The translations under genes were made by a program, and so were the position numbers. From contig CAYREQ010000002.1 of NCBI GenBank assembly GCA_964423445.1, positions 1 through 58,640 on the forward strand: a stretch of 58,640 nt of DNA, in the 5' to 3' direction. Positions 25,275-44,181 of this stretch are shown one piece after another. Every line of letters begins with the position of its first letter. Positions within the stretch are counted from its first letter, which is position 1. This DNA is from an uncultured Candidatus Saccharibacteria bacterium. GTDB lineage: Bacteria; Patescibacteriota; Minisyncoccia; Phycocordibacterales; UBA9973. The notes under the pieces were generated by a model, which ran no database searches, was not told the DNA's origin, and saw only the letters and a program-made list of their open reading frames with translations.

Positions 25275-25278
25275 AAAG

Positions 25279-25322
25279 TTATCCACAGGTCAGCCTTTTA
25301 TAAGTAATTTTAATAGTACAAT
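25279..25322 (+). promoter_or_regulatory. TTATCCACA-N29-TACAAT promoter module upstream of receiver gene
   Basis: Perfect DnaA-box 9-mer at 25279-25287, 29-nt gap, TACAAT at 25317-25322, 7 nt before ATG 25330. Confidence 0.55.
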
Positions 25323-25329
25323 TAATCAT

Positions 25330-25728
25330 ATGGAAGGAGAAAAGAAAAAAATTTTAATAGTAGATGACGATAATTTCCTTTTGGACATGTATGCCCTAAA
25401 ATTTAGCCAAAGTAATTTTGAGGTGTATACAGCGCCAGGAGGGGTAGAAGCCATAGAAAAACTCAAAGGAGGTCTTTCTCCCGATTTGATTTTGATGGAT
25501 ATAATAATGCCAGAAATGGATGGTTTTGAAATGCTAGAAAAGATAAACAAAGAAAATCTATCTAGTAAATCTATAAAAATTATTTTATCTAATAAAAGTG
25601 AGCAACAAGATATAGATAGAGGGCATGAGCTAGGTGTCGCAGGATACATAGTAAAAGCAAACTCTACTCCAAGAGAGGTAATTGAGCAGGTAAACAATAT
25701 CTTGTCACAAAAAGCTGCTGCTATATAA
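25330..25728 (+). CDS. stand-alone response-regulator receiver (CheY/PilH-like)
   Basis: 132 aa from the internal ATG: 'KILIVDDD', phospho-acceptor 'LILMDIIMPEMDG', 'GYIVKA'. The upstream part of the track ORF covers the terminator and promoter. Confidence 0.88.
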   Translation: MEGEKKKILIVDDDNFLLDMYALKFSQSNFEVYTAPGGVEAIEKLKGGLSPDLILMDIIMPEMDGFEMLEKINKENLSSKSIKIILSNKSEQQDIDRGHELGVAGYIVKANSTPREVIEQVNNILSQKAAAI

Positions 25729-25814
25729 AATTATCAACTATACCGTTAGCATAAACGCAAAAAGCGGGTTATAATAGTTAGGTATTATTAATTTAGTTTA
25801 ATATTTTCTAATAG

Positions 25815-26873: not shown

Positions 26874-26900
26874 CAATTATAAATTAAATTTAGTACTTGA

Positions 26901-28109: not shown

Positions 28110-28115
28110 AATAGC

Positions 28116-28161
28116 TGTGGATAACTCGTTTGCACTTGAACAGTTTTGTATATGTTATAAT
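28116..28161 (+). promoter_or_regulatory. inverted DnaA-box-like site plus extended -10 upstream of major pilin
   Basis: CTGTGGATAACT (the 12-mer reverse complement of the 25277 site) at 28115-28126. TG-n-TATAAT at 28156-28161, 31 nt downstream. Confidence 0.45.
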
Positions 28162-28246
28162 TAATCTATTAAAAACAAGTCGATTTAGAATCACTGCCTG
28201 AGAGGGTAGTAAATTATAAGTAATTATTAGTAAGTTTATATTTATT

Positions 28247-28684
28247 ATGAAAAATACATTTAAAAAGGGTTTTACATTGATTGAACTTTTGGTTGTTGTG
28301 GCTATCATAGGTATCTTGGCTTCAGTTGTTTTGGCTTCACTTAACACAGCTCGTTCAAAAGGTGCTGATGCTGCAGTAAAAGCAAACCTAGCAAACGTTA
28401 GAGCACAAGCTGAATTAGTTTATGATAGTGATAATGACTACGATGCTGTTTGTGGAGCAAACAGTGTTACACAGAATACTACTGTTGCTGCTGCTATTAC
28501 AGCTGCAAACACTGCTTCAGGAGGTACAGCTGTTTGTGGTAAGCCAGCTTCAGGTGCTGCTAGTGCTTGGGCTATATCTTCACCACTTAAGTCTTCTGGA
28601 CAATGGTGCGTAGATTCAACAGGTGCTTCTCATGGAATTGCTTCAGCAATATCTGCTACAACTGTTGTTTGTCCAGCTTCATAA
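28247..28684 (+). CDS. type IV pilin (major pilin candidate 1)
   Basis: 145 aa with prepilin signal 'KKGFTLIELLVVVAIIGILA' (G/FTLIE) and paired Cys in the C-terminal half. Confidence 0.9.
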   Translation: MKNTFKKGFTLIELLVVVAIIGILASVVLASLNTARSKGADAAVKANLANVRAQAELVYDSDNDYDAVCGANSVTQNTTVAAAITAANTASGGTAVCGKPASGAASAWAISSPLKSSGQWCVDSTGASHGIASAISATTVVCPAS

Positions 28685-28703
28685 TTCTATTAGTTCTAAA
28701 TTT

Positions 28704-28742
28704 AAAGACCACCCAGGGCAACCTAGGTGGTCTTTATTTTTG
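28704..28742 (+). terminator. intrinsic terminator after pilin 1
   Basis: AAAGACCACCCAGG-GCAA-CCTAGGTGGTCTTT followed by a T-run. Confidence 0.8.
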
Positions 28743-28786
28743 TGTTTGCTATAATATATATAGCTTAAAATTAAAATTTATATATC

Positions 28787-29272
28787 ATGACTATATTAAA
28801 AAGAGAAAGAGGTTTTACTTTATTAGAACTTATGGTCGTAGTTGGTCTTGTCGCTATCTTGGCTAGTTTGGTCATGGTGGCACTCGGTACTGCACGAGGC
28901 AAGGGAGGAGATGCTGGTGTAAAAAGTAATTTACACACCATAGCAAATCAAGCTGAACTTTTTATGACAGCAAATAATTCTTATTTACCTGCTGGCGGTT
29001 CTACTTTTTCTATCGCTACTTGTCCTACTTATAATGGAGCAGGTACAAATATGCTTTCAAAGGATAAAGTCATCGCTGATTCTATAGCACAAGCAGTGAG
29101 TAATGGAGGAAATGGTAGCTCTTGTTATAATTCTTCTTCCGCTTGGGCTGTAGCCGTAGGCTTGAAATCTAGCCCATCTCTTTCTTGGTGTATTGATAAT
29201 TCTGGTGCATCTAAACAAGTATCTTCTGCTCCTGCTAGTGCGATTAATGCTACGACGTTTCTCTGTAATTAG
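28787..29272 (+). CDS. type IV pilin (pilin candidate 2)
   Basis: 161 aa with 'RERGFTLLELMVVVGLVAILA'. Own TATAAT at 28750-28755. Confidence 0.88.
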   Translation: MTILKRERGFTLLELMVVVGLVAILASLVMVALGTARGKGGDAGVKSNLHTIANQAELFMTANNSYLPAGGSTFSIATCPTYNGAGTNMLSKDKVIADSIAQAVSNGGNGSSCYNSSSAWAVAVGLKSSPSLSWCIDNSGASKQVSSAPASAINATTFLCN

Positions 29273-29280
29273 TTTTATAT

Positions 29281-30090
29281 ATGATTATTACATTTACTCA
29301 TTTACTTACAATAATTTTCTTCACACTAGGTATTATAATAGGTAGTTTTTTAAACGTTGTTATTTGCAGGATGAATACATCACGATCACTCGGAGGTAGG
29401 AGTGCTTGTATGTCTTGTAAAAATCAACTTTGCTGGTATGAGCTTGTGCCTGTAGTTAGTTTTATGGGCTTAAAGGGCAGATGCAGAGTTTGTAAAAGCA
29501 AAATTTCTTTACAGTATCCACTCGTAGAATTAATCTCAGGTATAATTTTTGCTACTGTTTTTTATAAGTTGCAAGATGTTTTTTTTGTAAATATTCCTGT
29601 TTTTTCAGCCACCTATCTCTACTACGTAGTAATGTTTGCAATACTATTAGTGATAGTCGTATATGATATCAAGCATAAGATAATTCCAGACAATCTATCT
29701 CTTATGTTTGGGAGTCTAGCTTTTATTGGGTTGTTTTTTATAGATTGTAGTAGTTTTTCAAGTTTTTATTTCCATATTCCATCTATATTACAATTATTAT
29801 CTGGTGTATTTGTAGCTTTGCCATTTTTCTTACTTTGGCTAGTATCTCGTGGTAGATGGATGGGGCTAGGTGATGCAAAGCTGGCACTAGGACTGGGATG
29901 GTTTCTTGGTCTATCTGCGGCTTTCTCTGCGCTAGCATTGTCATTTTGGATTGGAACTATAGTAGGATTAATTTTAATTTTCTTTAAAGGTTATGGTATG
30001 AAAAGCGAGATTCCTTTTGCACCATACTTAGCATTGGGAACATTCATAGCGTTTGTTTTTCAATTAAATATTTTTCAAATTTATTTTTAA
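29281..30090 (+). CDS. pilD: prepilin peptidase/N-methyltransferase PilD (A24)
   Basis: 269 aa with Cys4 'CMSC...CRVC', polytopic, 'GLGDAKL'. Confidence 0.92.
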   Translation: MIITFTHLLTIIFFTLGIIIGSFLNVVICRMNTSRSLGGRSACMSCKNQLCWYELVPVVSFMGLKGRCRVCKSKISLQYPLVELISGIIFATVFYKLQDVFFVNIPVFSATYLYYVVMFAILLVIVVYDIKHKIIPDNLSLMFGSLAFIGLFFIDCSSFSSFYFHIPSILQLLSGVFVALPFFLLWLVSRGRWMGLGDAKLALGLGWFLGLSAAFSALALSFWIGTIVGLILIFFKGYGMKSEIPFAPYLALGTFIAFVFQLNIFQIYF

Positions 30091-30095
30091 ATTAT

Positions 30096-30737
30096 ATGTT
30101 ATTAAACACTAAAAAATATTATCAAATAAATAAAAAATCAGGAATGAGCTACATTGAGCTAATCGTGGTGTTGAGTATTTTCTCAGTGTTATCTGGTGTA
30201 GTTTTATATAATTACGGAGATTTTCAAAGTAAAGTAGATATAAAAAATTTATCTAGTCAAATTGCTTTAAAAATAGTAGAAGCACAAAAATCTTCTCTTT
30301 CTGGATTATTACCACAATTAAGTGTTTCTCCTACATGGAAACCTTCCTATGGAGTATATTTCAATTTTAATGATAAGGGACTTTCACAAACCAATTTTAT
30401 TTATTTTACTGACTTAGATTCAGATGGTTTTTTTGATGGAGATGATTGTACCGGAGAGTGTTTAGAAAAGGTAACTATAGGCAAAGGCAATACCATATCT
30501 GCTATGAAGGTTTTCTATGCAAGTGGTCAAGTAAAAAGAACGGGCATGGAAGAAGCAAAAGGAACACCTATTGAGGATTTGACCGTTTCTTTTTCTAGAC
30601 CTAGCTCTGGAGCAATTTTGAATACAAGTGCTGGTTTTACCTCTACTGTTTCATTTGTTCAAATTATTGTAACTTCACCGAAGTCTACAAATTCAACAAT
30701 TAATGTCTATCCTTCAGGTAGAATTGAAGTAATTTAG
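30096..30737 (+). CDS. minor pilin/pseudopilin
   Basis: 213 aa with 'KKSGMSYIELIVVLSIF' prepilin-type N-terminus. Confidence 0.75.
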   Translation: MLLNTKKYYQINKKSGMSYIELIVVLSIFSVLSGVVLYNYGDFQSKVDIKNLSSQIALKIVEAQKSSLSGLLPQLSVSPTWKPSYGVYFNFNDKGLSQTNFIYFTDLDSDGFFDGDDCTGECLEKVTIGKGNTISAMKVFYASGQVKRTGMEEAKGTPIEDLTVSFSRPSSGAILNTSAGFTSTVSFVQIIVTSPKSTNSTINVYPSGRIEVI

Positions 30738-30738
30738 T

Positions 30739-31377
30739 ATGAAAATAAATAATAACAAAAATGGATACACTATAATTGAAACCATGATTGCGGTTTCTCT
30801 TTTTTTGGTTATTACTATGGCTGGAATGGCTGCTCTATTGAATGCAAATTTACTTCAAAGAAAATCACAAAACATGCGTTCCATTATGGATAATTTGAAT
30901 TTTATCATGGAGGATATGTCTAGAAATATAAGAGTTGGTTATAATTATAGATGTTATGATAGTGGTACTTGGAGTGAGTCTTTTATTGCTCCAAATCCTG
31001 ATTTAAATACTCCGCAAGATTGTACAGGGGGAGGAGTGATTGTTTTTGAAGAAGCTCATGGTCACACACCCTCAAGTATAAATTCACCAGACCCAGATGC
31101 AAATGATCAATGGGCATACAAAATTGAAAGTCCAGATGGTTTTTTGCCTTACAATATATATAAATCTATAGATGGTGGTTCATCTTGGGTTCAATTAAAC
31201 CCAGACGAAGTCACCCTCGACCCATCTTCTTCTTTTGTGGTAACTGGATCTGAACCTACACCAAATATGGAGCAACCATATGTAACTATAAAATTAGTGG
31301 GTGAAATAACTTATAAAAATGTTGTGACTCCTTTTATTTTGCAAACATCAGTATCGCAGAGAATAATTGATATATAA
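30739..31377 (+). CDS. minor pilin/pseudopilin
   Basis: 212 aa with 'NKNGYTIIETMIAVSLF'. Confidence 0.75.
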   Translation: MKINNNKNGYTIIETMIAVSLFLVITMAGMAALLNANLLQRKSQNMRSIMDNLNFIMEDMSRNIRVGYNYRCYDSGTWSESFIAPNPDLNTPQDCTGGGVIVFEEAHGHTPSSINSPDPDANDQWAYKIESPDGFLPYNIYKSIDGGSSWVQLNPDEVTLDPSSSFVVTGSEPTPNMEQPYVTIKLVGEITYKNVVTPFILQTSVSQRIIDI

Positions 31378-31378
31378 T

Positions 31379-31813
31379 ATGAAAAATATTTTTATAAAAC
31401 AAAATAAAGGTTTTACTCTTGTAGAGACTCTGGTAGGTTTACTTATTTTTACGTTGACGATTATGGCTTCTATGTCTGTATTGGGTTCAAGTATCTCTAG
31501 TACAAATTATGCAAAACAAAAAATAGTAGCAGAGTATTTAGCCCAAGAGGGTATAGAATATGTGAGAAATCAACGTGATAACTATATTTTATTTGTTAGC
31601 GATGGGAGCGGACTTTCATGGGATCAATTTAGGGATGCTAAGACAGCTTTGATATCACCACCTCAACCTGAAGACACTACTTTTTCTAGATCAATTCAAA
31701 AAATTGTAGTAGATGCAGATCAAATAAAAATCATTTCTTCTGTTTCATGGATGCAAGGTTCTGGTTTAAAAACTGTTACTTTTTCAGAAAATTTATTTAA
31801 TTGGGTAGAGTAA
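31379..31813 (+). CDS. minor pilin/pseudopilin
   Basis: ATG lies 1 nt after the previous stop. 'KQNKGFTLVETLVGLLIF'. Confidence 0.75.
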   Translation: MKNIFIKQNKGFTLVETLVGLLIFTLTIMASMSVLGSSISSTNYAKQKIVAEYLAQEGIEYVRNQRDNYILFVSDGSGLSWDQFRDAKTALISPPQPEDTTFSRSIQKIVVDADQIKIISSVSWMQGSGLKTVTFSENLFNWVE

Positions 31814-32241: not shown

Positions 32242-34325
32242 TGTTTGGTATGGGTAAGCTAGAAGATAAAAAAAGAATACAGAATCTAAGGCAAGAAATT
32301 CAAAGATTGCGTGATCTTTATCATGTACAAGATGCCCCAGATGTCACAGATGATGTGTATGATTCTTTAACACGAGAATTAAAAGAACTTATAAAAAAGT
32401 ATCCAGAGTTTGATGATCCAAATTCACCAGAGAATAGAGTCGGTGGTCGTCCACTAGAGAAATTTGTTAAAGTCAGTCATCAGACTAGAATGCTCTCATT
32501 GAATGATGCTTTCTCATATGAAGAGCTTTACGAATGGGAGAAGAGAATTAAAAAACTTTTGACTACAAATTCTAAATTAAATTATTTTTGCGAGATTAAA
32601 TTTGATGGCTTGGCAGCATCGCTCATATATGAAAATGGTGTTTTTACAAGAGGAGCTACAAGAGGTGATGGATTTATCGGTGAAGATATTACTCAGAATT
32701 TGAAAACAATAAAATCAATACCACTAAAATTAAAATCTCCTTATCCTAGTTTTGTGGAAGTTCGCGGGGAGGCACTTGTCAGTAAAAAAATGTTGGTAAA
32801 ATTAAACTCTATTAATGAAAAATTAGGTAAACCACTTTTTGCAAACACTAGAAATGTAGCTGCTGGTAGTCTAAGGCAATTAGACCCAAAACTAGCGTCA
32901 GAAAGGAATTTAGATTTTTTTGCTTATGACATAATAGACAAAAAATCTAATTTAAAAAATCACTCAGAAGAACATAAATTTCTTAAAGATTTAGGATTCC
33001 AAGTTGAAAAGATAGAAGCTAAATGCAAAGACCTAGAAGAGGTAATAGACTTTATTAAAAAATTTGAAAAAATTAGACCAGATTTTCCATATGGTACTGA
33101 TGGTATAGTGATATCTGTAGACGACTTAAAATCTCAAGAAGTTTTAGGTATAGTGGGTAAAGCTCCACGTTATATGGTGGCTTTTAAATATCCTGCTGAG
33201 AAAGCGACCACTATAGTAAAAGATATAAAAGTAAACGTAGGACGCACTGGAGTGCTCACTCCACTAGCTCTTTTTGAGCCGACAAGAGTAGCAGGTTCAT
33301 TGGTCTCAAAAGCTACTCTGCATAATATGGATCAGATAGAGAGATTGGGTCTGCGTATAGGGGATACTGTAGTGATAGAAAAAGCTGGAGATGTAATTCC
33401 AAAAGTAGTGGAAGTTTTGTTAAAAATGAGGACAGGCAAAGAGAAGAAATTTAAAATGCCGATAAATTGTCCAGTATGTGAGACTTTAGTTGAAAAAAAA
33501 GGCGTGAAAACAGAGTCGATAAAAAATTCTGCCGCTTTACCCGCAAGCGGGCTCCGACACGGACAAAATTTTTCACCGACTCTGTTTTCAGTAGCTTATT
33601 ACTGTAAGAATCCTAAATGCCCTGCTAAAAATGAGAGATATTTAGATCACTTTGTATCCGTTTTTGATATATATGAACTTGGACCAAAAGTATTGAGACG
33701 CTTCAAAGACGAAGGCCTTATCACAGATGCGGGAGATATATTTACTTTAGAAAAAGAAGATATAGCTACACTCGAAAGATTTGGAGAAAAATCAGCAGAG
33801 AACATAATCAAAGAAATAGAAGAAAAAAAGAAAATTCCACTCTCAAAGTTTTTGTGGGCTTTGGGCATACTGCACGTAGGGGAGGAGACAGCTAGAGATC
33901 TAGCGACGCATTTTGGAACTTTAGATAAACTAATATTATCAGTCAAAGATGATAAAGATGAAGTAGACAGCATAGAGAACATAGGTCCGGCTGTATTAAA
34001 AAGTCTACATGATTTTTTCAATGATAAAAATAATTTAAATTTTATAAAAAAATTACAAGGAAACGGTGTAGTCATAGAAAAAGCTGAAAAGAGAAAAGCT
34101 GGGAAATTTACAGGTAAGAGTTTTGTTTTGACCGGCACATTGTCTACCATGTCTCGTGAAATAGCCAAAGAGCGTATTGTCACTCTTAGTGGAAAGGTAG
34201 TGGGTTCGGTATCAAAAAATACTACTTATGTAGTAGCAGGCGTAGAGCCGGGCTCTAAATTAAAAACAGCAGAAAAACTCGGAGTAAAAATATTAAATGA
34301 GAAAGAATTTCTCAGCATGCTATAA
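32241..34325 (+). CDS. ligA: NAD-dependent DNA ligase LigA (with 29-aa insertion in the Zn finger)
   Basis: 694 aa with adenylation motif 'CEIKFDGLA', Zn finger CPVC...CKNPKC, and HhH and BRCT regions. Confidence 0.95.
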   Translation: MFGMGKLEDKKRIQNLRQEIQRLRDLYHVQDAPDVTDDVYDSLTRELKELIKKYPEFDDPNSPENRVGGRPLEKFVKVSHQTRMLSLNDAFSYEELYEWEKRIKKLLTTNSKLNYFCEIKFDGLAASLIYENGVFTRGATRGDGFIGEDITQNLKTIKSIPLKLKSPYPSFVEVRGEALVSKKMLVKLNSINEKLGKPLFANTRNVAAGSLRQLDPKLASERNLDFFAYDIIDKKSNLKNHSEEHKFLKDLGFQVEKIEAKCKDLEEVIDFIKKFEKIRPDFPYGTDGIVISVDDLKSQEVLGIVGKAPRYMVAFKYPAEKATTIVKDIKVNVGRTGVLTPLALFEPTRVAGSLVSKATLHNMDQIERLGLRIGDTVVIEKAGDVIPKVVEVLLKMRTGKEKKFKMPINCPVCETLVEKKGVKTESIKNSAALPASGLRHGQNFSPTLFSVAYYCKNPKCPAKNERYLDHFVSVFDIYELGPKVLRRFKDEGLITDAGDIFTLEKEDIATLERFGEKSAENIIKEIEEKKKIPLSKFLWALGILHVGEETARDLATHFGTLDKLILSVKDDKDEVDSIENIGPAVLKSLHDFFNDKNNLNFIKKLQGNGVVIEKAEKRKAGKFTGKSFVLTGTLSTMSREIAKERIVTLSGKVVGSVSKNTTYVVAGVEPGSKLKTAEKLGVKILNEKEFLSML
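33505..33590 (+). repeat. in-frame palindromic insertion element, copy 1 (in ligA)
   Basis: Perfect 14-bp arms TGAAAACAGAGTCG (33505-33518) / CGACTCTGTTTTCA (33577-33590) enclose a 56-nt core shared with pheT. Confidence 0.85.
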
Positions 34326-35054
34326 ATTTATTTTATTTACAGCTTCAAAGAAATTTTTAAATATTGGTTCGAGTTCACCATTTTCATATACTTCAGGATG
34401 AAACTGTACACCAAGACAAAAGTAATTTGGGTCTATATGCTCTATGGATTCCACGACTCCGAGAGGAGACATAGCTCCTATTTTTAAATCCGTACCAATC
34501 TTTTCTATACACTGATGGTGACCACAAGGCACTGTCACTTGTGACTTTTCTAGTATTTTTTCTAATTTACTTTCTTTTTCAATATTTATTATATGGGCAC
34601 AGTTAGCACCTCTCAGATCGTCATAATTTCCACCTTCACTCAAACCATGTTTTTCATCTGGAAATTTATCAGGTAAGTGCTGGGTAAGCGTACCACCTTG
34701 GGATACATTTAACACTTGCAAACCACGGCATATACCAAGAAAAGGTTTTTTGTCAGCTACAGCCCACTTGGCAATTTCCAATTCCACCTCATCTCTCTTT
34801 GGAACTTCTATATTTGTTTTATTTTCAATTTCTTTACCATAATAAGATGGGTTTATGTCTCCACCACCCATAAGAAGCACACCACTACAATTCTCGTAGT
34901 ATTTTTTTACTATATTTATGGGTAATGTAGTAGGCAAAAGAATAGGCTCAATATTATAAGAAATCAATTTCCTTAAATAAGAATCACGAATTCCGTGGGT
35001 GGGAAAATATTTTTTATCATCAAATATAGCTAGTGGAACAAGTATTTTCAACAT
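34320..35054 (-). CDS. class I glutamine amidotransferase-like hydrolase (peptidase C26 / PuuD family)
   Basis: 244 aa with nucleophile elbow 'GICRGLQVLN' and 'QFHPE'. Its 3' end overlaps the ligA stop. Confidence 0.85.
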   Translation of the reverse strand: MLKILVPLAIFDDKKYFPTHGIRDSYLRKLISYNIEPILLPTTLPINIVKKYYENCSGVLLMGGGDINPSYYGKEIENKTNIEVPKRDEVELEIAKWAVADKKPFLGICRGLQVLNVSQGGTLTQHLPDKFPDEKHGLSEGGNYDDLRGANCAHIINIEKESKLEKILEKSQVTVPCGHHQCIEKIGTDLKIGAMSPLGVVESIEHIDPNYFCLGVQFHPEVYENGELEPIFKNFFEAVNKINL

Positions 35055-35077
35055 AAATATATTATAACAAAAATATG

Positions 35078-35162
35078 CGGAGGCGGAGAGATTCGAACTC
35101 TCGATACCTTTCGGTATGCCACCTTTCCAAGGTGGTGGAATAAACCGCTATCCGACGCCTCC
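35078..35162 (-). tRNA. class II tRNA-Ser(GGA)
   Basis: Acceptor GGAGGCG/CGCCTCC, G73, anticodon loop TTGGAAA, variable arm CATACC..GGTATC, T-loop TTCGAAT. Confidence 0.9.
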
Positions 35163-35204
35163 CTGTTTATAATCTACACTATTTTTCTTAAAATAAAAGC
35201 ATAT

Positions 35205-35975
35205 GTGCTATATTTAGATATTGTGAAAAAAAACATAATTCTAAATAAAAAAGAAGGAGAGACTCCATTAGTGGCCTTAGAGGTCTTTAGATCTAAAAAT
35301 AAACTGTATAAAAATACAAAAATGACTTATGCAGGTAGATTAGACCCTATGGCGAGTGGGCTACTAATAGTCCTTGCGGGTGAAGAAACTAAAAATAAAG
35401 AAAAATACTTAGCTTTTGATAAAGAATATGAATTTGAAATCTTATTTGGCTTCGCGACTGATACATATGATATTTTAGGTAAAATCTTAAAATTCTCTTC
35501 ATTTAATCAAGATAAAAAAGAATTAGAAAAATTGGTTAAAAAAAATATAAAAAATTTTACCGGTAAATTTGTTCAAAAATATCCAATATATTCTTCAAAG
35601 ACTGTAAAAGGAAAACAACTGTTTACCTATGCTAGGAGCGGGGAAGAGGTGGAGATTCCTACAAGAGAAGTAAATGTAAAATTACTTAAATTAATAAACA
35701 CACGCACTATATCTAGTAAAAAACTTTTAGAAAATATAAATAAAAGAATTGATAAAGTACAGGGTGATTTTCGTCAAAAAGAAATTCTCAAACTATGGGA
35801 TAAATATTTGTGTACTAATACGACTAAATACACAGTGATGAGCTTTAAAATAAAATGCAGTAGTGGTACATATGTCCGTGGTATTGCAAACAGCTTAGGA
35901 GAAAATATAGGTATACCAGCATTAGCGTTTTCTATAAAAAGGACAAAAATTGGCAAATGGAGCAAAGCCAAATAA
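35205..35975 (+). CDS. truB: tRNA pseudouridine(55) synthase TruB-like
   Basis: 256 aa with 'AGRLDPMASGLL' catalytic-Asp motif. GTG start is uncertain. Confidence 0.82.
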   Translation: MLYLDIVKKNIILNKKEGETPLVALEVFRSKNKLYKNTKMTYAGRLDPMASGLLIVLAGEETKNKEKYLAFDKEYEFEILFGFATDTYDILGKILKFSSFNQDKKELEKLVKKNIKNFTGKFVQKYPIYSSKTVKGKQLFTYARSGEEVEIPTREVNVKLLKLINTRTISSKKLLENINKRIDKVQGDFRQKEILKLWDKYLCTNTTKYTVMSFKIKCSSGTYVRGIANSLGENIGIPALAFSIKRTKIGKWSKAK

Positions 35976-35992
35976 AGTGCTAAAATATTAGT

Positions 35993-38980
35993 ATGAACAA
36001 TACTGAGGAATTTAATAAAGAGTATAAAAAGCTAAATAAGGCTCAAAAAGAGGCCGTAGATACCCTTGAGGGACCAGTGATGGTAGTAGCAGGACCTGGC
36101 ACAGGAAAGACTCAGATATTGGCTCTGCGCATAGGAAATATATTGAAAAAGGGGCTCGCTTCTCCTGATGGCATTTTGTGCCTTACTTTTACTCGTTCTG
36201 GAGTAAAAGCTATGAAAAATAGACTAGAGGATTATATTGGGGCGGATGCTAACAATGTCCAAATATCTACATTTCACTCTTTTGCAAATGAACTTATTGA
36301 AAAGTATCATCATCTTTTAGATTTTAAAACCATACCAAAATTATTAGAAGAAGATGAGGCTGTATTTTTAGTGGATGAGATAATGCAAAACAATATTTGG
36401 GAGTATTTGCGTCCTCGTTCAAACCCTACACTGTATTTTAATGACTTGAAACAATTAATCTCAATTTTAAAACGTGAACGGCTGAGTCCAGAAGAATTTT
36501 TATCGTATGTAGAAGAAGATATTAAAAGTTTAAAAAATGATCCTGATAGTATATCTAGTCGAGGGGAGAGTAAAGGAAAATTAAAAAAAGAAATTGAGAA
36601 GAAAATAGAATCCTTAGAGAGGACTCGTGAGGTAGTAGAATTTTATAGAATATATGAAGAGAAAAAGAAAGAAAATGCTCTCATGGATTATGACGATGTC
36701 TTAGAGTATGCAGTAAAATTAGTAGAAGATTTTGAAGATGTGAGAGCTGATATTTATGAGGAATTTTTATATTTATTAGTGGATGAACATCAAGACAGTA
36801 GTGGGGTACAAAATAATTTTATAAAGGCAGTATGGAAAGACACCGAACAGCCAAATATATTTGTAGTTGGTGACGACAGACAATTGATCTATGCTTTCTC
36901 TGGAGCAAAGCTCTCATACTTTGAGGAATTTGCACACTTTTTCGGCAAAGCTAAACTCATTACTTTGACTGAGAATTATCGCTCCACCGCTAATATATTA
37001 GACTTAGCAGACAATTTACTTTCCAGTTCTGTGGCAAAAGAAAAACTTCACTCAAATACAAAAGGCAAAGAAAAGATTTTATTAGAAGAATACAGTTATC
37101 CCAGGGATGAGATTATTGGCGCTGGGCTATATTTTAAAGAAAAAATCGACAAAGGTTGCAACCCCGAAGATTGTGCTATTTTATTGCCAAAGAATTTTCA
37201 TGTTCGTACAGCCATACAAATACTTTTAGATATGGGCCTGCCTGTATCTACCGGCAAGAGCGTTTCACTATTTAGCTTAAAAGAGACAAAATCTTTTTTA
37301 CGAATTTTAAATATAATAAATGATCCTTTTAATTCCACTCTTATTTCTGAGTCATTATTAGACAGTAAAAATGGAGTAAAATCTTTTGAAGCGCATAAGT
37401 TTTTAAAGAATAATAAGACCTATAATTTAACCTTAGAAGATTTGATAAAAAATGGCATAAGTGATGGACTCTTTGCAGAAGAAAATGAAATCTCAAAATG
37501 GGGTAATACCTTAAAAAATTGGGTAGAATTGCAAAATAGTAATTTGTCTCAAATAGTAAGTAAAATAGGAAATGACTTCTTGATTAAAAATTCAAAAGGT
37601 CACGAAGAGCTCTTGAGGAGTGTAGAAATAGTGCGTAGTTTTATTCATGCGTCTAGCATGTTTGAACAAAAGAATCCAAATGCAAGCTTAAAAGACTTTT
37701 TGGAATATTTTAAAAGATTAGAGAATTATGGAAATCATGTCAGCATAGCTACTTTCGGTAGTGAAAAAGGTATTGCTGTGATGACACTACACAAATCAAA
37801 AGGACTGGAATATAAAAATGTGTGGATAGGGCATATGAATGAAGAAGTACTAAACTCTGGGAAAAAGAATAGCTTTACTTTACCAGAGAAAGTAAAAGAA
37901 CATATACATCAAAGAGATATAGAAAACGCAAAAAGAGAGTTATACGTGTCTATAACTCGAGCAAAAGAAAATTGTGTCATATCTTATGCTGGTGAAAATT
38001 ATAATGGGGCAGAAATGGAGCTGGCACAGATAATCCGTATTTTACCAGAGGTACATTTCATCAAAAAAAATAGAGAAGAGACTGAACAAAAAATCATGGA
38101 AAGTGAAAATGGAGTAAAATCTTTTGTGAGTTACAAAGATGTGATAGATATAGACACCTTAGAAGATATAAAAAAATTCGTAAGACAAAATTATACAGAT
38201 ACAAAGGTCTCCGTATCATTGCTCAATAATTTTTTTGAATGTCCTTGGAAGTGGTATTTTAGAAATTTTCTTAAATTACCAGAAGTAAAAGGCACCTCAC
38301 TTGCACTCGGTTCTGCGGTGCACTCTGTAATAGAATTTATTTTAAAGAGTAAAGGGAAGCCAAAAGAAGAGGAAATAAAAGATAAAATTATTTTTGAGCT
38401 GAAAAGAGAGGGGCTACAAGATCAAAAAGAAATAAACAGGATTTCAAAGGAAGCAAAAAAAGCTGTAGATAATTGGCTTCTAAATTATTATGAAAAATTA
38501 GAAAAAGACTATGAGTCTGAGAGGTCTATACAGTTTAGGGATTCCAGCTATAAAAATTTATTGATGTATGGAAAATTAGACCTCACAGAGAGAGATGTAG
38601 AAGGGAATATAATTATTACTGATTTTAAAACAGGTAAGCCTAAGACAAAAGGCGAGATAGAAAAATTGGATGAAGAAAATAGACTTTCTTCCTATATGCG
38701 CCAGCTAGCTATGTATTCTTATCTAGTAGCTGGAGCAGAGAAAGGTAAACAGGTAGCATTTTCTAGGTTGATGTTTTTAGAAGGAGATGTGAAAGATAAA
38801 AATTCTCTATACTCTACACATATAGATAAAGAAAAAATAGATTTGTTAAAGAAAGATATAAATGATTATATGGAGAATTTAGAGAGTGGGGAATGGGTAA
38901 ATCTCACTTGCCACTATAAATCTTGGGGTTCAAACAAAGATGAATGCGAATACTGCATTTTAAAGTCTAGAATTATTTAA
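35993..38980 (+). CDS. UvrD/PcrA-type helicase fused to RecB/AddB-type PD-(D/E)XK nuclease
   Basis: 995 aa with 'AGPGTGKTQ', 'LVDEHQD' and 'TLHKSKGLEY'. C-terminus has 'ITDFKTGK', 'QLAMYSY' and Cys at 'ECPW' plus 'C-x12-C-x2-C'. Confidence 0.88.
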   Translation: MNNTEEFNKEYKKLNKAQKEAVDTLEGPVMVVAGPGTGKTQILALRIGNILKKGLASPDGILCLTFTRSGVKAMKNRLEDYIGADANNVQISTFHSFANELIEKYHHLLDFKTIPKLLEEDEAVFLVDEIMQNNIWEYLRPRSNPTLYFNDLKQLISILKRERLSPEEFLSYVEEDIKSLKNDPDSISSRGESKGKLKKEIEKKIESLERTREVVEFYRIYEEKKKENALMDYDDVLEYAVKLVEDFEDVRADIYEEFLYLLVDEHQDSSGVQNNFIKAVWKDTEQPNIFVVGDDRQLIYAFSGAKLSYFEEFAHFFGKAKLITLTENYRSTANILDLADNLLSSSVAKEKLHSNTKGKEKILLEEYSYPRDEIIGAGLYFKEKIDKGCNPEDCAILLPKNFHVRTAIQILLDMGLPVSTGKSVSLFSLKETKSFLRILNIINDPFNSTLISESLLDSKNGVKSFEAHKFLKNNKTYNLTLEDLIKNGISDGLFAEENEISKWGNTLKNWVELQNSNLSQIVSKIGNDFLIKNSKGHEELLRSVEIVRSFIHASSMFEQKNPNASLKDFLEYFKRLENYGNHVSIATFGSEKGIAVMTLHKSKGLEYKNVWIGHMNEEVLNSGKKNSFTLPEKVKEHIHQRDIENAKRELYVSITRAKENCVISYAGENYNGAEMELAQIIRILPEVHFIKKNREETEQKIMESENGVKSFVSYKDVIDIDTLEDIKKFVRQNYTDTKVSVSLLNNFFECPWKWYFRNFLKLPEVKGTSLALGSAVHSVIEFILKSKGKPKEEEIKDKIIFELKREGLQDQKEINRISKEAKKAVDNWLLNYYEKLEKDYESERSIQFRDSSYKNLLMYGKLDLTERDVEGNIIITDFKTGKPKTKGEIEKLDEENRLSSYMRQLAMYSYLVAGAEKGKQVAFSRLMFLEGDVKDKNSLYSTHIDKEKIDLLKKDINDYMENLESGEWVNLTCHYKSWGSNKDECEYCILKSRII

Positions 38981-39075
38981 AAAATATTAGAGCCATTGTC
39001 TAACCAGCCTAGGTAAAAACCAATCAGCAAAAAGCTGATTAATAGGATGATTAAAACTAAGTAAACCTTTTTCAT
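38977..39075 (-). CDS. candidate 32-aa hydrophobic peptide (leaderless)
   Basis: MKKVYLVLIILLISFLLIGFYLGWLDNGSNIF. ATG lies 6 nt after TACAAT (comp. 39082-39087). Below the track cutoff. Confidence 0.3.
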   Translation of the reverse strand: MKKVYLVLIILLISFLLIGFYLGWLDNGSNIF

Positions 39076-39142
39076 ATATAAATTGTAGCATATATAAAAT
39101 GTGCTTGTAATTTTAGGTTTTTGGCTATAAGATGGTTTATAT

Positions 39143-40186
39143 ATGTTTAAGAAGGTAAATACAAAATCTAAAGAAGAGCTTTTAAATGACCTGCAAAATG
39201 AGACTTTTAACAGAAAGACCTTATCTTTTTATCGCTATGTAAAGATAGCCAATCCCAAAGAAATGCGTGATATGCTTTTCGATAAATTTTCTGAGCTTGG
39301 ATGTTTGGGGAGAATATATATTGCTAGTGAGGGAATAAATGCACAGATGAATGTGCCAGAACACAATTGGACTCAATTTGATAATTTTATTCAAAGTATT
39401 CCTGAATTCTCTGGTGTGCCTTACAAGCTTGCTGTGGAGGAAAAAGGCAAAGGAACATTTTCTAGTTTTATAAAATTGATAGTAAAAGTACGCCCCAAAA
39501 TTGTGGCAGATGGGTTAGATGATTCTACTTTTGATCCTTCTAATACTGGAGATTATGCTACTGCTGAAGATGTAAATAGTATGATTGAAAGAGGAGTGAC
39601 TGTGATAGATATGCGTAATTTTTACGAAGCGATGATAGGGCATTTTAAAGGTGCAAAGATAATGGAAGTGGATACTTTTCGAGAACAGTTGAAAAAAGTC
39701 CATGACATGTTTCGTGATAAAAAAGATGAAGAAGTATTGCTGTATTGCACAGGTGGTATCCGTTGCGAAAAGGCTTCTGCTTGGATGAAGCATAATGGTT
39801 TTAAAAATGTAAAACATATCAAAGGAGGTATTATAGAATATGCTCACCAGGTCAGAGAGAAAGGACTACAAAATAAATTTCTTGGAAAGAACTTTGTTTT
39901 TGATGAACGAATGGGAGAGAAAATAGGAGATGAAATAATCTCATTTTGTCAGGTATGTGAAAAAGAAAAATGCGATAATTATATTCACTGTAAAAATAAA
40001 TCTTGCCATGTATTATTTCTTTGTTGTGAATCTTGTGAGAGTAAATTACGAGGGTATTGCTCAAAAGTATGTAATATCTGTGATAAATTTCCTAGAAAAA
40101 TTAATAAATTTATTGTAGGAGCAGATAAGCAGAACCATAAAAATCAGTATAAAAAGAATTATAAAAGACCAAAAATACAAATATAG
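39143..40186 (+). CDS. trhO: rhodanese-domain tRNA uridine(34) hydroxylase TrhO (YceA/UPF0176)
   Basis: 347 aa with 'YIASEGINAQ', rhodanese loop 'YCTGGIRCEKA' and a Cys-rich C-terminus. Confidence 0.85.
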   Translation: MFKKVNTKSKEELLNDLQNETFNRKTLSFYRYVKIANPKEMRDMLFDKFSELGCLGRIYIASEGINAQMNVPEHNWTQFDNFIQSIPEFSGVPYKLAVEEKGKGTFSSFIKLIVKVRPKIVADGLDDSTFDPSNTGDYATAEDVNSMIERGVTVIDMRNFYEAMIGHFKGAKIMEVDTFREQLKKVHDMFRDKKDEEVLLYCTGGIRCEKASAWMKHNGFKNVKHIKGGIIEYAHQVREKGLQNKFLGKNFVFDERMGEKIGDEIISFCQVCEKEKCDNYIHCKNKSCHVLFLCCESCESKLRGYCSKVCNICDKFPRKINKFIVGADKQNHKNQYKKNYKRPKIQI

Positions 40187-40253
40187 ATAAATTAGCCGAG
40201 TTTTAGGTAATTTGGTATAGTTATATATTATAAGTTTAATTATTTTAAACAAT

Positions 40254-40526
40254 ATGCCGATAATAGAAATACATGGTAAACAAGTTCATATTCCAGGGGA
40301 TAGTGACTCTGCAAAGTTTGCTGCAGAATATTTAGAAAAATATAAAGAAAATGCTGAAGATATATTTCAAGCAGCTCGTCACGACCGTATAAATGGTGTC
40401 ACTCATTTTCAGACTCACAAGCCAGCTGGATATCATGGAGCTACAGAGTTTACAGTAGTTCATAATAAAAATCATGAAGGTGGATATGAATTTGAATTAC
40501 GAAAAAAAGGACACCACATAATGTAA
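40254..40526 (+). CDS. hypothetical protein abutting pheS
   Basis: 90 aa, His-rich. Its TAA stop is immediately followed by the pheS ATG. Confidence 0.55.
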   Translation: MPIIEIHGKQVHIPGDSDSAKFAAEYLEKYKENAEDIFQAARHDRINGVTHFQTHKPAGYHGATEFTVVHNKNHEGGYEFELRKKGHHIM

Positions 40527-41243
40527 ATGAGTGAAGAAAATAAAAAAGGAACAATACACCCACTAAATTTATTAGCCCAAGAGGCTTATAAAGTTTTTTC
40601 TGATATGGGTTTTGAAATTGCAAATGGTAGAGAGCTGGAGAGTGAATGGTATAACTTTGATGTTTTAAATGTTCCCAAAGATCACCCTGCACGAGACATG
40701 CAAGACACTTTTTGGATAAAAGAAAAAGATGGTGTACAGAAAAATGTTTTACGTACACACACCACATCAGTGACTGCAAGAGCAATAGAGCAAGCAGGTA
40801 AAGAAGGTAGGATGCCTTGTGCTTTTATTTCCATTGGAAAAGTTTTTAGAAATGAAGCTACTGACGCTACTCATGAAATGCAATTTTTCCAGATAGATGG
40901 ATCTATGATTGGTGAAAATATTTCTGTAGCAAATTTGAAAGGCGTACTTACAGAATTTTATAAAAAAATGCTAGGAGAAGATGTGGAGATAGAATTTAGA
41001 CCGAGCTTTTTTCCTTTCACTGAGCCTTCTTTTGAAATATTTGCCAAGTTCAATGGTAAGTGGCTCGAGATGATGGGTGGTGGAATGTTGCACCCAAATG
41101 TACTACGTAACATAGGGCTAGACGGAGATAAGGTCCAAGGTTTTGCTTTTGGTGGAGGACTAGACCGTATAGCAATGATAAAGTGGAATATTCCAGATGT
41201 CCGTCTTTTTTATCAAGGAGATTTACGCTTAAATCAATTTTAA
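40527..41243 (+). CDS. pheS: phenylalanine-tRNA ligase alpha subunit (catalytic core only)
   Basis: 238 aa with 'PKDHPARDMQDTF', 'LRTHTT' and 'GFAFGGGLDRIAM'. Lacks the N-terminal coiled-coil arm. Confidence 0.93.
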   Translation: MSEENKKGTIHPLNLLAQEAYKVFSDMGFEIANGRELESEWYNFDVLNVPKDHPARDMQDTFWIKEKDGVQKNVLRTHTTSVTARAIEQAGKEGRMPCAFISIGKVFRNEATDATHEMQFFQIDGSMIGENISVANLKGVLTEFYKKMLGEDVEIEFRPSFFPFTEPSFEIFAKFNGKWLEMMGGGMLHPNVLRNIGLDGDKVQGFAFGGGLDRIAMIKWNIPDVRLFYQGDLRLNQF

Positions 41244-41247
41244 TAAA

Positions 41248-43050
41248 ATGAAAGTATCTTACAATTGGCTAAAATGGTATATACCCGACGCGCCTGAGGC
41301 ACACAAGCTTGCAGATATTTTCAACTACCATCTTTGTGAAGTTGAGACTGTAGAAGAAAAAGATGGCGACTTTATATTAGATATGAAGATTTTGCCAAAT
41401 CGAGCGCATGACCTACTTTCTCATATGGGAATAGCACGTGAGGTATCTTCACTTTTAAATATAAAATACGTAGATCCTACACCTAAATATAAAATTCCAG
41501 AATCTAAACCTACAAATTTAAAAATAAATATTACTACAAATAAAGACAGGAGGCATGTGGGCAGAATAGTCCGTAATGTAAAAGTAGGCCCTAGTCCAGA
41601 ATGGGTGGTAAAACACTTGGCTTCAATAGGGCAGAGAAGTATAAACAATATAGTAGATGCGACAAACCTGACTATGTTTGATTGTGGACAGCCTACACAT
41701 GCTTTTGATTTAAATAAAGTTGAGGGCGGGGAGCTAAATATAAGAGATGCAAAAAATGGAGAAAAAGTAACCCTGTTAACTGGTGAAGAAAAAGAACTAA
41801 AAGAGGGTATGATAGCAATATGTGATGGTGAAGGTAATATTTTAGATACAGGTATAAAAGGTGGAAAACACGCAGAGATAACTACAGCTACCACAGACCT
41901 GATTTTAGAAGCTGACAACTTTGACCCAGTATTTGCTCGTAAAACAGGGCAAGCTTTAAATATTTTCACAGATGCTAGAAAGCGTTTTGAAAATGATCTG
42001 TCTCCAGAGCTCGCACCTTTTGCTATGATGGAGCTTTCAGCTCTAATAGCAGAGATGTGCCCTGAGGCGACTTTTGAAGAAATAGTAGATACTTACCCAC
42101 AAAAACAGACAGAAAAAAAACTTTCTTTTTCAACTGAAAAAATTTCAAAGATTTTAGGTGTACCAGTTTCTGTAATTGAAATAGGTAATATTTTAGAGAG
42201 ATATAAAATTGGATATAAAAATGAAGGGGATAAGTTTGAGATAGTCGTGCCACCAATGCGTATGGATTTGGAAATACAAGAAGATATGGCAGAAGAAATT
42301 GGCAGAATTATGGGCTATGACAAAGTAAAAGGAACTATACCAAAGATAGATTTTAAACCAAAAGTAAATGAAACTTATGAAAAAATCGTCTGGGCTAGAA
42401 ATAAACTCATGAGTGATGGTTATAGTGAAGTCATGACTTACACTTTTAGAAATACTGGTGAAGTGGAAGTCATGCAGAGTGCATCTGATAAAAAGTTTTT
42501 GCGTACAAATTTGAGTGATGGATTAAAAGATAGTTTGAAATTGAATAAAATAAATGCTCCATTATTAGGAACTAGTGAGATAAAAATTTTTGAAATTGGA
42601 ACTGTATGGTGCCCTGGGGAAGAAATGCATATTGCCTATGGAAACAAGAAAGAAGTAAAAGAAATGAAACTTGAAAATTTTATTTCACAAGAAGAGAAAA
42701 ATTTCGTCGCTTTACCCGCTAGCGGGCTCCGACACGAGCAAAATTTTTCTCTTCTTGCTCCATTTAAAATGTGGTCACTTTTTCCATTTGTCGCACGTGA
42801 TGTGGCTGTGTGGGTGCCAGAATCTACTAGTAGCGATGAAGTGGCTAAACTTATAAAAGAAAACATGGGGGATTTAGTGGTAAAAGGTCCAGATTTGTTT
42901 GACTCATTTACAAAAGAAAATCGCACTTCTTATGCTTTCAAGCTAGTTTTTCAGTCTTTTGAACGAACTCTCACAGATGCTGAGGTAAACGAGGTAATGG
43001 CCAAAATAGCTGAAAAAATAAAGGATAATCAGGATTGGCAGGTCAGATAA
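41248..43050 (+). CDS. pheT: phenylalanine-tRNA ligase beta subunit (short form, with insertion)
   Basis: 600 aa with 'MKVSYNWLKWYI', the B3/4 and B5 regions, and C-terminal 'FPFVARDVAVWV'. No OB-fold B2 domain is visible. Confidence 0.93.
   Translation: MKVSYNWLKWYIPDAPEAHKLADIFNYHLCEVETVEEKDGDFILDMKILPNRAHDLLSHMGIAREVSSLLNIKYVDPTPKYKIPESKPTNLKINITTNKDRRHVGRIVRNVKVGPSPEWVVKHLASIGQRSINNIVDATNLTMFDCGQPTHAFDLNKVEGGELNIRDAKNGEKVTLLTGEEKELKEGMIAICDGEGNILDTGIKGGKHAEITTATTDLILEADNFDPVFARKTGQALNIFTDARKRFENDLSPELAPFAMMELSALIAEMCPEATFEEIVDTYPQKQTEKKLSFSTEKISKILGVPVSVIEIGNILERYKIGYKNEGDKFEIVVPPMRMDLEIQEDMAEEIGRIMGYDKVKGTIPKIDFKPKVNETYEKIVWARNKLMSDGYSEVMTYTFRNTGEVEVMQSASDKKFLRTNLSDGLKDSLKLNKINAPLLGTSEIKIFEIGTVWCPGEEMHIAYGNKKEVKEMKLENFISQEEKNFVALPASGLRHEQNFSLLAPFKMWSLFPFVARDVAVWVPESTSSDEVAKLIKENMGDLVVKGPDLFDSFTKENRTSYAFKLVFQSFERTLTDAEVNEVMAKIAEKIKDNQDWQVR
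42688..42757 (+). repeat. in-frame palindromic insertion element, copy 2 (in pheT)
   Basis: Perfect 17-bp arms CAAGAAGAGAAAAATTT (42688-42704) / AAATTTTTCTCTTCTTG (42741-42757) around the core shared with ligA. Confidence 0.85.
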
Positions 43051-43460: not shown

Positions 43461-43547
43461 CCACATTATATTTGTATATTTTTTCATATGTGTTATATTA
43501 AAAATATGAGTAGAAACGCCCAAATAAATAAAAGTTCAATTTGTTTT

Positions 43548-43661
43548 AAGCAAATTATTTGCTCTTCATTCTAGAAGACTGATATTTGCGCTGTAAAAAA
43601 ATTCAAAAGTTACAACCTAAATACCAGCCTTCTAGAAATAGAAGTCTGGTATTGTTCTTTA
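43548..43661 (+). repeat. repeated leader unit A (promoter-like region plus terminator hairpin)
   Basis: Aligns by eye with 44056-44166 with few substitutions and three 1-nt indels. Ends with hairpin ATACCAGCCTTCTA..TAGAAGTCTGGTAT plus TTGTTCTTTA. Confidence 0.8.
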
Positions 43662-43934: not shown

Positions 43935-44055
43935 CAATAGACATCAAGGGGAAAATCAAATTACGGGCTGTGCGAGATTCGTCACAGCCCAAAAATTCAA
44001 ACTTAAATTTAAAATGAAACAAAATATAAATACAAATAAAAATTTTACATTTACA

Positions 44056-44166
44056 AAGCAAATTTGTTGCTCTTCATTTAGAAGGCTGATATTTGTGCTG
44101 TAAAAATTTTCAAAAGTTACAACCTAAATACCAGTCTTCTAAAAAAGACTGGTATTTTGTTCTTTA
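44056..44166 (+). repeat. repeated leader unit B
   Basis: Second copy of 43548-43661. Hairpin ATACCAGTC..GACTGGTAT plus TTTTGTTCTTTA, then TAGGAG. Confidence 0.8.
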
Positions 44167-44181
44167 CTAGGAGTGTGAATT

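Follow-up and report, generated by a model that had tools for sequence, protein, structure and literature searches.

In-frame hairpin elements dispersed among ligA, pheT and other genes of Candidate Phyla Radiation bacteria

A stretch of 58,640 nucleotides from an uncultured bacterium labelled Candidatus Saccharibacteria (contig CAYREQ010000002.1 of assembly GCA_964423445.1), referred to below as the window, carries two copies of a hairpin-forming element, one inside ligA and the other inside pheT. These copies belong to a dispersed family in bacteria of the Candidate Phyla Radiation (CPR, Patescibacteria). The family is present or absent among relatives, lies in frame within its host genes, re-uses the same protein loops, and combines paired changes in the arms with a conserved centre. 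The ligA and pheT segments are probably non-autonomous, translated, palindromic selfish elements of the kind known as Rickettsia palindromic elements (RPEs), within a large hairpin superfamily of CPR (Paceibacteria/Nomurabacteria-like) bacteria. The element is one of many hairpin families occupying the same few protein loops.

The element in ligA, pheT and other host genes

Positions 33521-33576 of ligA and 42696-42751 of pheT align without gaps and are identical at 48 of 56 positions. Both copies are in phase 0 of the host open reading frame (ORF), and the encoded peptides are KNSAALPASGLRHGQNFS and KNFVALPASGLRHEQNFS. The alignment contains a 28-nt core, GCTTTACCCGC[A/T]AGCGGGCTCCGACACG, which has exactly two matches in the window (0.00 expected, from 100 shuffles) and a G+C content of 68%, against 35% for the window. 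When the window was searched by nhmmer with a family profile, no third copy was obtained; only the ligA and pheT copies matched.

The ligA copy is closed by a perfect 14-nt inverted repeat, TGAAAACAGAGTCG (33505-33518) and CGACTCTGTTTTCA (33577-33590), and its arms extend to 27 nt with 89% complementarity. The repeat that closes the pheT copy is 17 nt long and also perfect (42688-42704 and 42741-42757). A preliminary description of this DNA had reported the ungapped 48/56 match, the common frame and the perfect 14-bp and 17-bp repeats, and alignment, translation and location of the arms bear out all of these. For the ligA copy, the predicted folding energy is -34.8 kcal/mol on the top (gene) strand and -51.3 kcal/mol on the bottom strand (z-scores of -5.6 and -8.5), and for the pheT copy it is -27.8 and -37.4 kcal/mol, respectively. 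The z-scores of both copies against shuffled sequences range from -5.2 to -8.5. In the ligA copy, the parts of the core combine as an asymmetric internal loop and an apical hairpin. The outermost TTTTCA of the 3' arm overlaps the FS codons of FSVAYYC, which are present too in an ortholog that lacks the element (L116; such labels denote the individual genome or metagenome loci compared).

The LigA insert (VKTES...PTLFS), about 29-31 codons long, separates the two Cys pairs of the zinc finger. Aligned with Thermus filiformis LigA (1DGS), it places 31 residues where that protein has two (418-419), at the tip of the Cys4 zinc finger; the residues preceding the insert align to 377-417 of 1DGS and those after it to 420-469. 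The PheT insert lies in a linker, the Pfam core domain ending at residue 458 and the C-terminal FDX-ACB domain beginning at residue 510. From this alignment and these domain positions, the whole hairpin including both arms is added sequence in a surface loop or linker, and the insertion point is compatible with the protein fold at the two sites examined, LigA and PheT. Pfam gives no zinc-finger domain for the window LigA, presumably because the element splits the domain.

Searches outside the window showed that the element is widespread. In GTDB genomes, with one representative for each prokaryotic species, an exact 24-nt core word was found at 35 loci, all of them CPR/Patescibacteria, with the assembly labels Paceibacterota, Nomurabacteria, 'Patescibacteria group' and 'uncultured Saccharibacteria', and a 22-nt core word was found at 66 metagenome loci. 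Duplicate removal left 78 distinct copies from genome and metagenome loci together. No copy was found in the viral contigs, phage records or plasmid records searched.

Long ORFs contain 62 of the 78 copies (about 80%), in at least 12 gene families. Among these, 47 copies are in sense orientation and read in the ALPASGLRH frame, 10 are in sense orientation with the frame shifted by one base (LYPQAGSD), and five are antisense (RVGARLRVKR). About 16 copies lie in short ORFs or are intergenic, and some of the intergenic ones resemble terminators (L020). The hosts are PheT, LigA (two sites), and MnmA-like, LeuRS-, IleRS-, PheS-, CCA-adding-, Tgt-, GatB- and UvrD-like proteins. The host frame is kept, with no stops, in 62 of 62 intragenic copies, and LigA and PheT sites filled by every other hairpin family are likewise in frame and stop-free. 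The same DNA is thus read as three unrelated peptides, which indicates that the conserved unit is the nucleic acid and not a protein motif. Further copies, which the preliminary description had proposed to look for, therefore exist in genomes and metagenomes, mostly within genes, in frame, and in several frames and orientations.

Searches at the protein level added little. A tandem probe of two element peptides gave three candidates and no match, and the 30-residue insert searched against 1.84 billion protein representatives gave four matches, all multi-stretch (4-7 each) and uninformative. A relaxed loop-motif pattern search of the retrieved loci gave nothing useful. As to the hosts, records labelled 'uncultured Candidatus Saccharibacteria' (e.g. 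L036) hold the closest PheT, at 88% identity, and those labelled 'Nomurabacteria' or 'Paceibacterota' are at 50-79%; the Saccharibacteria label on those third-party assemblies is probably unreliable, and a Nomurabacteria-like member of the Paceibacteria is the most likely source of the window.

Loop occupancy, stem covariation and strand asymmetry

To describe the host loops, 80 PheT and 80 LigA orthologous loci were retrieved, and the LigA loop statistics were taken on 82 genes. A PheT loop was counted as filled when its minimum free energy (MFE) was -28 kcal/mol or lower. A strong hairpin (MFE down to -66 kcal/mol) occupies the PheT loop in 52 genomes and belongs to at least 10 sequence families including the window's; in some other genomes this loop is short and unstructured (78-87 nt, MFE -6 to -15 kcal/mol). 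The window's family is present at the PheT site in L036, L042-L044, L049 and L084, and the site is short and unstructured in L046, L051, L052, L061, L063, L080 and L082. The LigA zinc-finger loop is empty in 41 of the 82 genes and filled in the other 41, the hairpins falling into 22 sequence clusters, and it is empty in L116, the closest LigA ortholog of the window. Empty sites in relatives, another point raised in the preliminary description, are thus found at both the ligA and the pheT loops.

Loop occupancy does not track host relatedness. At the LigA loop, L121 (filled) and its nearest neighbour L131 (empty) are 85% identical, L184 and L187 carry different hairpin families at 90% identity, and the window's family is found also in L010, a distant LigA. 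Altogether, 65 of the 76 strong hairpins in the 82 LigA genes sit in four loops, with about one hairpin per gene, and several of the other hairpin families also have copies in other genes. The state of a loop varies within the window's family too. In the mnmA loop, the element is in frame +1 in five genomes, in frame 0 in L225 and antisense in L205, and in the LeuRS loop it is in sense orientation in L029, L201 and L249 and antisense in L024 and L235. Such states do not go back to one inherited insertion; they point to independent insertions, or to an element replaced or flipped in place.

Some further arrangements were seen at these sites. In L119 and L135, the LigA zinc-finger loop holds two adjacent hairpins (258-300 nt, MFE about -100 kcal/mol) with the frame open, and in L119 the two side-by-side hairpins are oppositely oriented. 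Three more LigA loops (window residues about 165-180, 225-240 and 330-345) have strong hairpins in relatives (L116-L195) and are empty in the window; the 225-240 site holds the window's family in L214 and L216, after DFFAYD. A PheS loop near IKEKDGVQKNVLRTHTT is empty in the window (pheS, 40527-41243) and contains the window's family in L021, L248 and L256, where the inserts read IKDA...ALPASGLRH...LVLRTHTT. Several other families have copies some 500-600 nt before the start of pheT, probably within pheS (L045, L047, L053, L055, L056).

Conservation was compared on seven pheT copies found by protein homology, so that the comparison is free of core-search bias. The 57-nt centre is 74-95% identical among them, and 82-95% without the decaying copy of L084. 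The pheT flanks of the same copies are 60-83% identical, with third codon positions at 37-70%, near saturation. The centre of the window pheT copy is 95% identical to that of L044 (flanks 68%) and 89% identical to that of the closest relative, L036 (flanks 83%). The cores of L036 and L084 are mutated. The presence of fresh-looking beside decaying copies at one site fits turnover, by re-insertion or conversion, and not a single ancient constrained insertion.

The family consensus reads (G/A)CTTCG-CAGATnCAG-rAAAATTyCGCC-GCTTTAC-CCCG-CAAG-CGGG-CTCCGACAC-GGACnnAATTTTyCT-nnATCTG-CTTCGC. In the structure predicted for it, about 20 bp form the basal stem, one base is bulged, a helix of 4 bp has an asymmetric internal loop, and a tetraloop caps the apical stem of 4-5 bp. 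The arms are 17-33 nt long and the element totals about 70-100 nt, other families reaching about 130 nt. Across 30 copies the core columns are invariant, and 83.8% of the stem cells are paired, against 67.2% in shuffled sets (0 of 500 shuffles as high); controls with a slid register gave 30-49% pairing. Double changes occur at 19 of the 24 basal stem pairs, and 142 doubly changed cells were counted against 39 in shuffles (again 0 of 500 as high). All four Watson-Crick pair types are found at many stem positions and one-sided G-U intermediates are almost absent, so that copying of one arm from the other at the DNA level fits at least as well as compensatory selection of the RNA type. Orthologous pheT copies have a common left junction, and their arms differ by perfectly compensated changes. 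At least part of the arm co-evolution therefore occurs in place; overall, the arms change rapidly in sequence and yet remain paired.

These results modify the earlier picture of the arms. The proposal that the hairpin is maintained or regenerated agrees with the strong covariation. Arms without common sequence were reported for the ligA/pheT pair, and this holds for the pair; family-wide, however, a weak consensus, CTTCG-CAGATnCAG-rAAAATT, is apparent. Likewise, each copy does have its own inverted repeat, but the arms are a family consensus diverged through paired changes and not unrelated sequences.

The internal loop is the most conserved feature of all. Divergent copies (L191 and the second copy in L007) retain GCTTTAC and CTCCGACAC and have the apical stem swapped, and related families (the 'LLQPSAGTFR' and 'GLTLPGVPGGTH' inserts) have GC(A/T)TTAC or GCTTGAC on the 5' side and CCTTCCG(C/T)C or CCCACAC on the 3' side. 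Since the loop motifs outlast the apical stem, the asymmetric loop is likely, judging from these sequences, to be a recognition site for a protein. A kink-turn was considered for the internal loop on inspection of the predicted structure and discarded, the sequence being off consensus.

The two strands of the element are not equivalent. Variable stem positions of the top strand have 37 A.C and 5 G.U mismatches, and two further A.C positions beside the internal loop are invariant; these are wobble pairs on the bottom strand. Of 37 copies, 33 have the more stable predicted fold on the bottom strand, and the mean energies are -49.0 (bottom) and -40.6 kcal/mol (top), although these asymmetry counts are not independent, being partly inherited from the subfamily consensus. 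Where the element is inverted with respect to the host gene (L015, L024, L191), its own bottom strand still folds better, and hence the asymmetry is a property of the element and not an adaptation of the mRNA. The strand bias is not general across all hairpin families. Selection against stable mRNA hairpins is therefore an unlikely cause of the wobble asymmetry, which stays with the inverted element. Replication direction as the origin of the bias towards sense orientation is unsupported, the antisense copy of L024 lying in a gene co-oriented with its neighbours.

CTTCG-like pentamers are found at the left flank and the right end of many copies, the left and right variants being uncorrelated within copies. 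Some copies, including the window ligA copy, are without CTTCG flanks. Hints that the arms may be inverted copies of the local target come from TTTTCA with TGAAAA in the window, from L121 compared with L131, and from palindromes over the right-hand TCCGC (L197, L257), in orthologs that are highly diverged.

Table 1. Positions of the ligA and pheT copies, their parts and their host genes in the window
Feature	Position	Strand	Basis and remarks
Complete ligA copy, hairpin element	33505..33590	+	fold; alignment with 1DGS; insert missing in L116
5' arm, ligA copy	33505..33531	+	outer 14 nt pair perfectly; inner AAAAAATTCTG part common to the family
3' arm, ligA copy	33564..33590	+	inverted-repeat pair with the 5' arm
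G+C-rich core, ligA copy	33534..33561	+	GCTTTAC, apical stem-loop CCCG-CAAG-CGGG (33540-33551), CTCCGACACG; exact pattern match
Complete pheT copy (SQEEKNFVALPASGLRHEQNFSLLA)	42688..42757	+	17-nt perfect arms; fold
Core, pheT copy	42709..42736	+	exact pattern match; apical loop CTAG, not CAAG
ligA, NAD-dependent DNA ligase, 694 aa	32241..34325	+	Pfam adenylation, OB, HhH, BRCT; ORF uninterrupted through the element
pheT, phenylalanyl-tRNA synthetase β chain, 600 aa	41248..43050	+	Pfam B3_4, B5, tRNA_synthFbeta, FDX-ACB; ORF uninterrupted through the element

Alternative explanations and known systems

The main alternative is a host function. The element would then be a nucleic-acid signal, such as an RNase III or other RNA-processing site, a DNA-binding site, or an uptake or segregation site, that lies within genes for want of intergenic space. 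We consider this unlikely. A 57-nt centre far more conserved than the adjacent synonymous sites and stems kept through paired changes are what a signal would be expected to show, but its presence is erratic among close relatives, half of the LigA orthologs being empty, and some copies are visibly decaying. The repeated occupation of identical loops, together with the two invariant wobble positions that flank the internal loop on one strand, would also suit a signal; yet more than 20 unrelated-looking families interchange in one loop, and both orientations occur at the same site. The window does encode RNase III and a type IV pilus/competence-like apparatus. However, two copies in 58 kb are far below the density of uptake-signal-type repeats. 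The uptake-signal reading was rejected.

A second alternative is a version of the selfish reading in which the element, of the repetitive extragenic palindromic (REP)/REPIN or IS200/IS605 type, is moved as single-stranded DNA by an HUH (Y1) transposase. This too seems improbable. The structure is strand-asymmetric, with the asymmetry tied to the element rather than to the host gene, but this may simply come from inheritance of the consensus, and in mostly co-oriented genes it is the template strand that folds better. The IS608 paradigm would predict the opposite strand. While the conserved asymmetric loop resembles a protein recognition site and a similar pentamer, CTTCG, is found at the left flank and the right end, there is no GTAG or CGTC tag and most copies are intragenic. 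No Y1 or RAYT (REP-associated tyrosine transposase) gene was detected in the window or, with approximate queries, in 1.48 Mb of related loci. The preliminary description had left the choice between RPE-type DNA and REP/MITE-like elements (MITE, miniature inverted-repeat transposable element). The RPE-type, in-frame selfish option was retained; the REP/RAYT and IS200/IS605 options are unsupported to date, in that a GTAG tag is missing, the copies are mostly intragenic and no Y1 gene turned up in the 1.48 Mb searched.

Removal of the segment during expression, by intron-like excision or by translational bypass between the flanking TCG codons, is very improbable. A long stem would bring the flanks together, and CTTCG direct repeats flank many copies; mobile palindromic elements that are bypassed are mentioned for Magnusiomyces mitochondria in a work cited within PMC6649704. 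Excision or bypass would, however, leave about two-thirds of the copies out of frame, whereas the 62 intragenic copies, like the filled LigA and PheT sites, are all in frame and free of stops. Frame and stop-freeness are always kept, and so the segment appears to be translated rather than removed. The sole exception is L253 (metagenome contig Ga0138256_10313741), a short, low-quality contig. Its ligA is 82% identical to that of the window and has the same insert near position 465. The 3' arm of this insert is degraded, and a change of one base (CACGGAC against CACGAC) switches the reading within the element from the ALPASGLRH to the LYPQAGSD frame. The change may stem from a sequencing error or a pseudogene, or may be a genuine variant.

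The remaining explanations, namely ordinary divergence of a protein loop, a peptide motif in common, and an artefact of assembly or a chimera (the last of which the preliminary description had itself raised), are refuted, for although the host loops are hypervariable in length, one DNA is read in three frames or orientations to give unrelated peptides, the nucleotide match is far above chance, the stems covary, and about 100 independent contigs of many studies, with dozens of independent assemblies among them, carry the element.

The closest known system is that of the Rickettsia palindromic elements. RPE-1 to RPE-10 are several palindromic families that lie in frame in unrelated genes, are translated at sites compatible with the protein fold and have no transposase (PMC10969869). 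The CPR family is like them in its dispersal, in its in-frame insertion in unrelated housekeeping genes, in fold-compatible sites and in the lack of an associated transposase. It differs in the phylum-level group of the host and in being shorter (70-90 nt, with other families reaching about 130 nt; RPEs measure about 100-150 nt). The repeats of RPEs reportedly become less identical over time (PMC6649704), unlike the CPR stems, which are long, near-perfect and kept by paired changes. The CPR loops, moreover, are re-used by more than 20 families in varied frames and orientations. The likeness to RPEs considered here is one of features.

Other systems are more distant. Intragenic MITEs are described, in passages of PMC10969869 and PMC5896051, as small non-autonomous elements with inverted-repeat ends that form in-frame fusions with host ORFs. 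Examples are the Coxiella QMITE, intragenic ERIC and cyanobacterial MITEs, which resemble the CPR element in small size, inverted-repeat ends and absence of transposase coding. MITEs are nevertheless mostly intergenic, traceable to a parent insertion sequence (IS) and bordered by a defined target duplication, while the CPR element is about 80% intragenic. REPs, as characterized in a passage of PMC3733652, are extragenic, 20-40 nt long and tagged by GTAG or CGTC. The CPR element shares with REP/REPIN and IS200/IS605 elements an imperfect hairpin that folds better on one of its strands, and also an unpaired, conserved motif that a protein probably reads; at 70-90 nt, about 80% intragenic and with the flank consensus CTTCG, it falls outside the REP definition. 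Coding palindromes of Nematomorpha mitochondria show dynamic gain and loss with arm identity seemingly maintained, and template switching or conversion has been proposed for them (PMC6649704). They too are long, near-perfect inverted repeats within translated genes, but both their arms encode conserved protein and they form no dispersed family, whereas in the CPR case the entire hairpin is extra sequence, a non-conserved loop built around a core common to the copies.

Integron attC sites are imperfect palindromes of 57-141 nt with a conserved structure, variable arms and a functional bottom-strand hairpin, and they lie between gene cassettes beside an integrase, with RYYYAAC/GTTRRRY boxes. The CPR element likewise conserves structure while the arms vary, but its copies lie inside essential genes. 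An identity with attC was rejected: there are no AAC/GTT boxes at the consensus ends, the copies are in housekeeping genes and the window has no integrase.

Several points weigh against a selfish origin of the element. As the preliminary description had stated for transposase, RAYT and IS200/IS605 genes, no such gene, and no integrase, HUH domain or other mobilizing candidate, was found among the 50 window ORFs scanned with Pfam. Its suggestion of a Y1/HUH transposase elsewhere was followed by tblastn with Y1 TnpA (IS200) and RAYT in 1.48 Mb of related loci, and no match with E < 0.1 was obtained, with queries that were approximate and with genome fragments only. A parent IS with matching ends was equally missing from the window, and Y1 enzymes from the related loci. 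The outer arms differ between all copies within one genome, so that a recent burst is not indicated. Many copies are orthologous, which makes their counts non-independent, and the exact-word search exaggerates the invariance of the core. The flanking CTTCG...CTTCG could be a target duplication or part of the element. No near-identical pair of filled and empty genomes was found, and a metagenome search for the empty allele with the window ligA flanks gave 0 matches. Finally, the conservation of the centre, the maintained stems, the re-use of loops and the 57:5 bias towards sense orientation might reflect a host function.

The element does not correspond to a catalogued RNA family. In Rfam 15, no family matched it at the gathering threshold, only three tRNAs passing in the window, and a permissive scan of the element gave only generic miRNA-precursor-like hairpins far below threshold. 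No account of such elements in CPR bacteria emerged from a full-text literature search, which did not cover subscription journals.

Neighbouring features, possible mechanism and implications

Other hairpins and genes of the window were also noted. A module of about 110-135 nt occurs twice (43526-43660 and 44034-44170), 508 nt apart and at 76-91% identity, in the 1.4-kb pheT-gyrB spacer; each copy has its own hairpin with arms of 27-28 nt and lies upstream of a small ORF. The module had no Rfam match (only sub-threshold miRNA-like ones) and is unrelated in sequence to the ligA/pheT element. Short-loop hairpins with stems of 17-20 nt, three of them perfect and one 85% complementary, are found at 1438-1475, 25240-25275, 28698-28741 and 58269-58305. 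Three of the four directly follow gene ends, and all four are probably intrinsic terminators, distinct from the long-loop hairpins inside genes. Upstream of ligA (20557-31813) lies a type IV pilus cluster with PilM, PilO, PilC and a prepilin peptidase, two secretion ATPases of the T2SSE family (PilB/PilT-like) and several prepilin-like ORFs with N-terminal methylation motifs. RNase III is encoded at 50171-50866, and mRNA stems of 25-35 bp would be its expected substrates. The combination of RNase III and long stems raises the question of how the ligA and pheT transcripts avoid cleavage.

For the selfish palindromic element, both the selfish behaviour and the spread through a hairpin intermediate are what we infer from the distribution and structure of the copies. 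In the proposed mechanism, the element would be copied between sites through a single-stranded hairpin intermediate, and a putative trans-acting protein would recognize the asymmetric loop formed by GCTTTAC and CTCCGACAC. Selection would spare only in-frame, stop-free insertions in tolerant loops. The stem would be kept perfect in one of two ways, through compensatory selection or through correction templated within the molecule (template switching or repair of hairpin mismatches), as a result of which each copy would have 'its own' inverted repeat. Copies would eventually decay or be deleted, and the loop would then be re-occupied. The hot spots may result from selection alone or from targeting, for example of resident hairpins or a conserved hexamer.

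A more specific proposal, which we put forward only tentatively, is that CPR bacteria have a system of their own for insertion or replacement directed by structure. A putative strand-specific enzyme would recognize the asymmetric loop in the bottom-strand hairpin and direct elements into a few loops, or into resident hairpins, of housekeeping genes, and the stems would be kept by conversion. If true, such a system would go beyond an RPE-like repeat and count as a new class of mobile DNA or as a domesticated means of diversifying loops.

A large part of bacterial diversity belongs to the CPR/Patescibacteria, whose mobile DNA is poorly known. Translated hairpin inserts of dozens of families are routine in essential genes of these bacteria, such as those for DNA ligase, aminoacyl-tRNA synthetases and enzymes of tRNA modification, and these inserts account for many insertions specific to a lineage and many interrupted domain matches in CPR proteins. 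They constitute a natural experiment in the tolerance of proteins to random loop insertions and are potential markers for strain-level population studies. They also provide a rare bacterial case in which the arms of a palindrome co-evolve while the centre is nearly fixed, which points to a conversion process or a recognition machinery.

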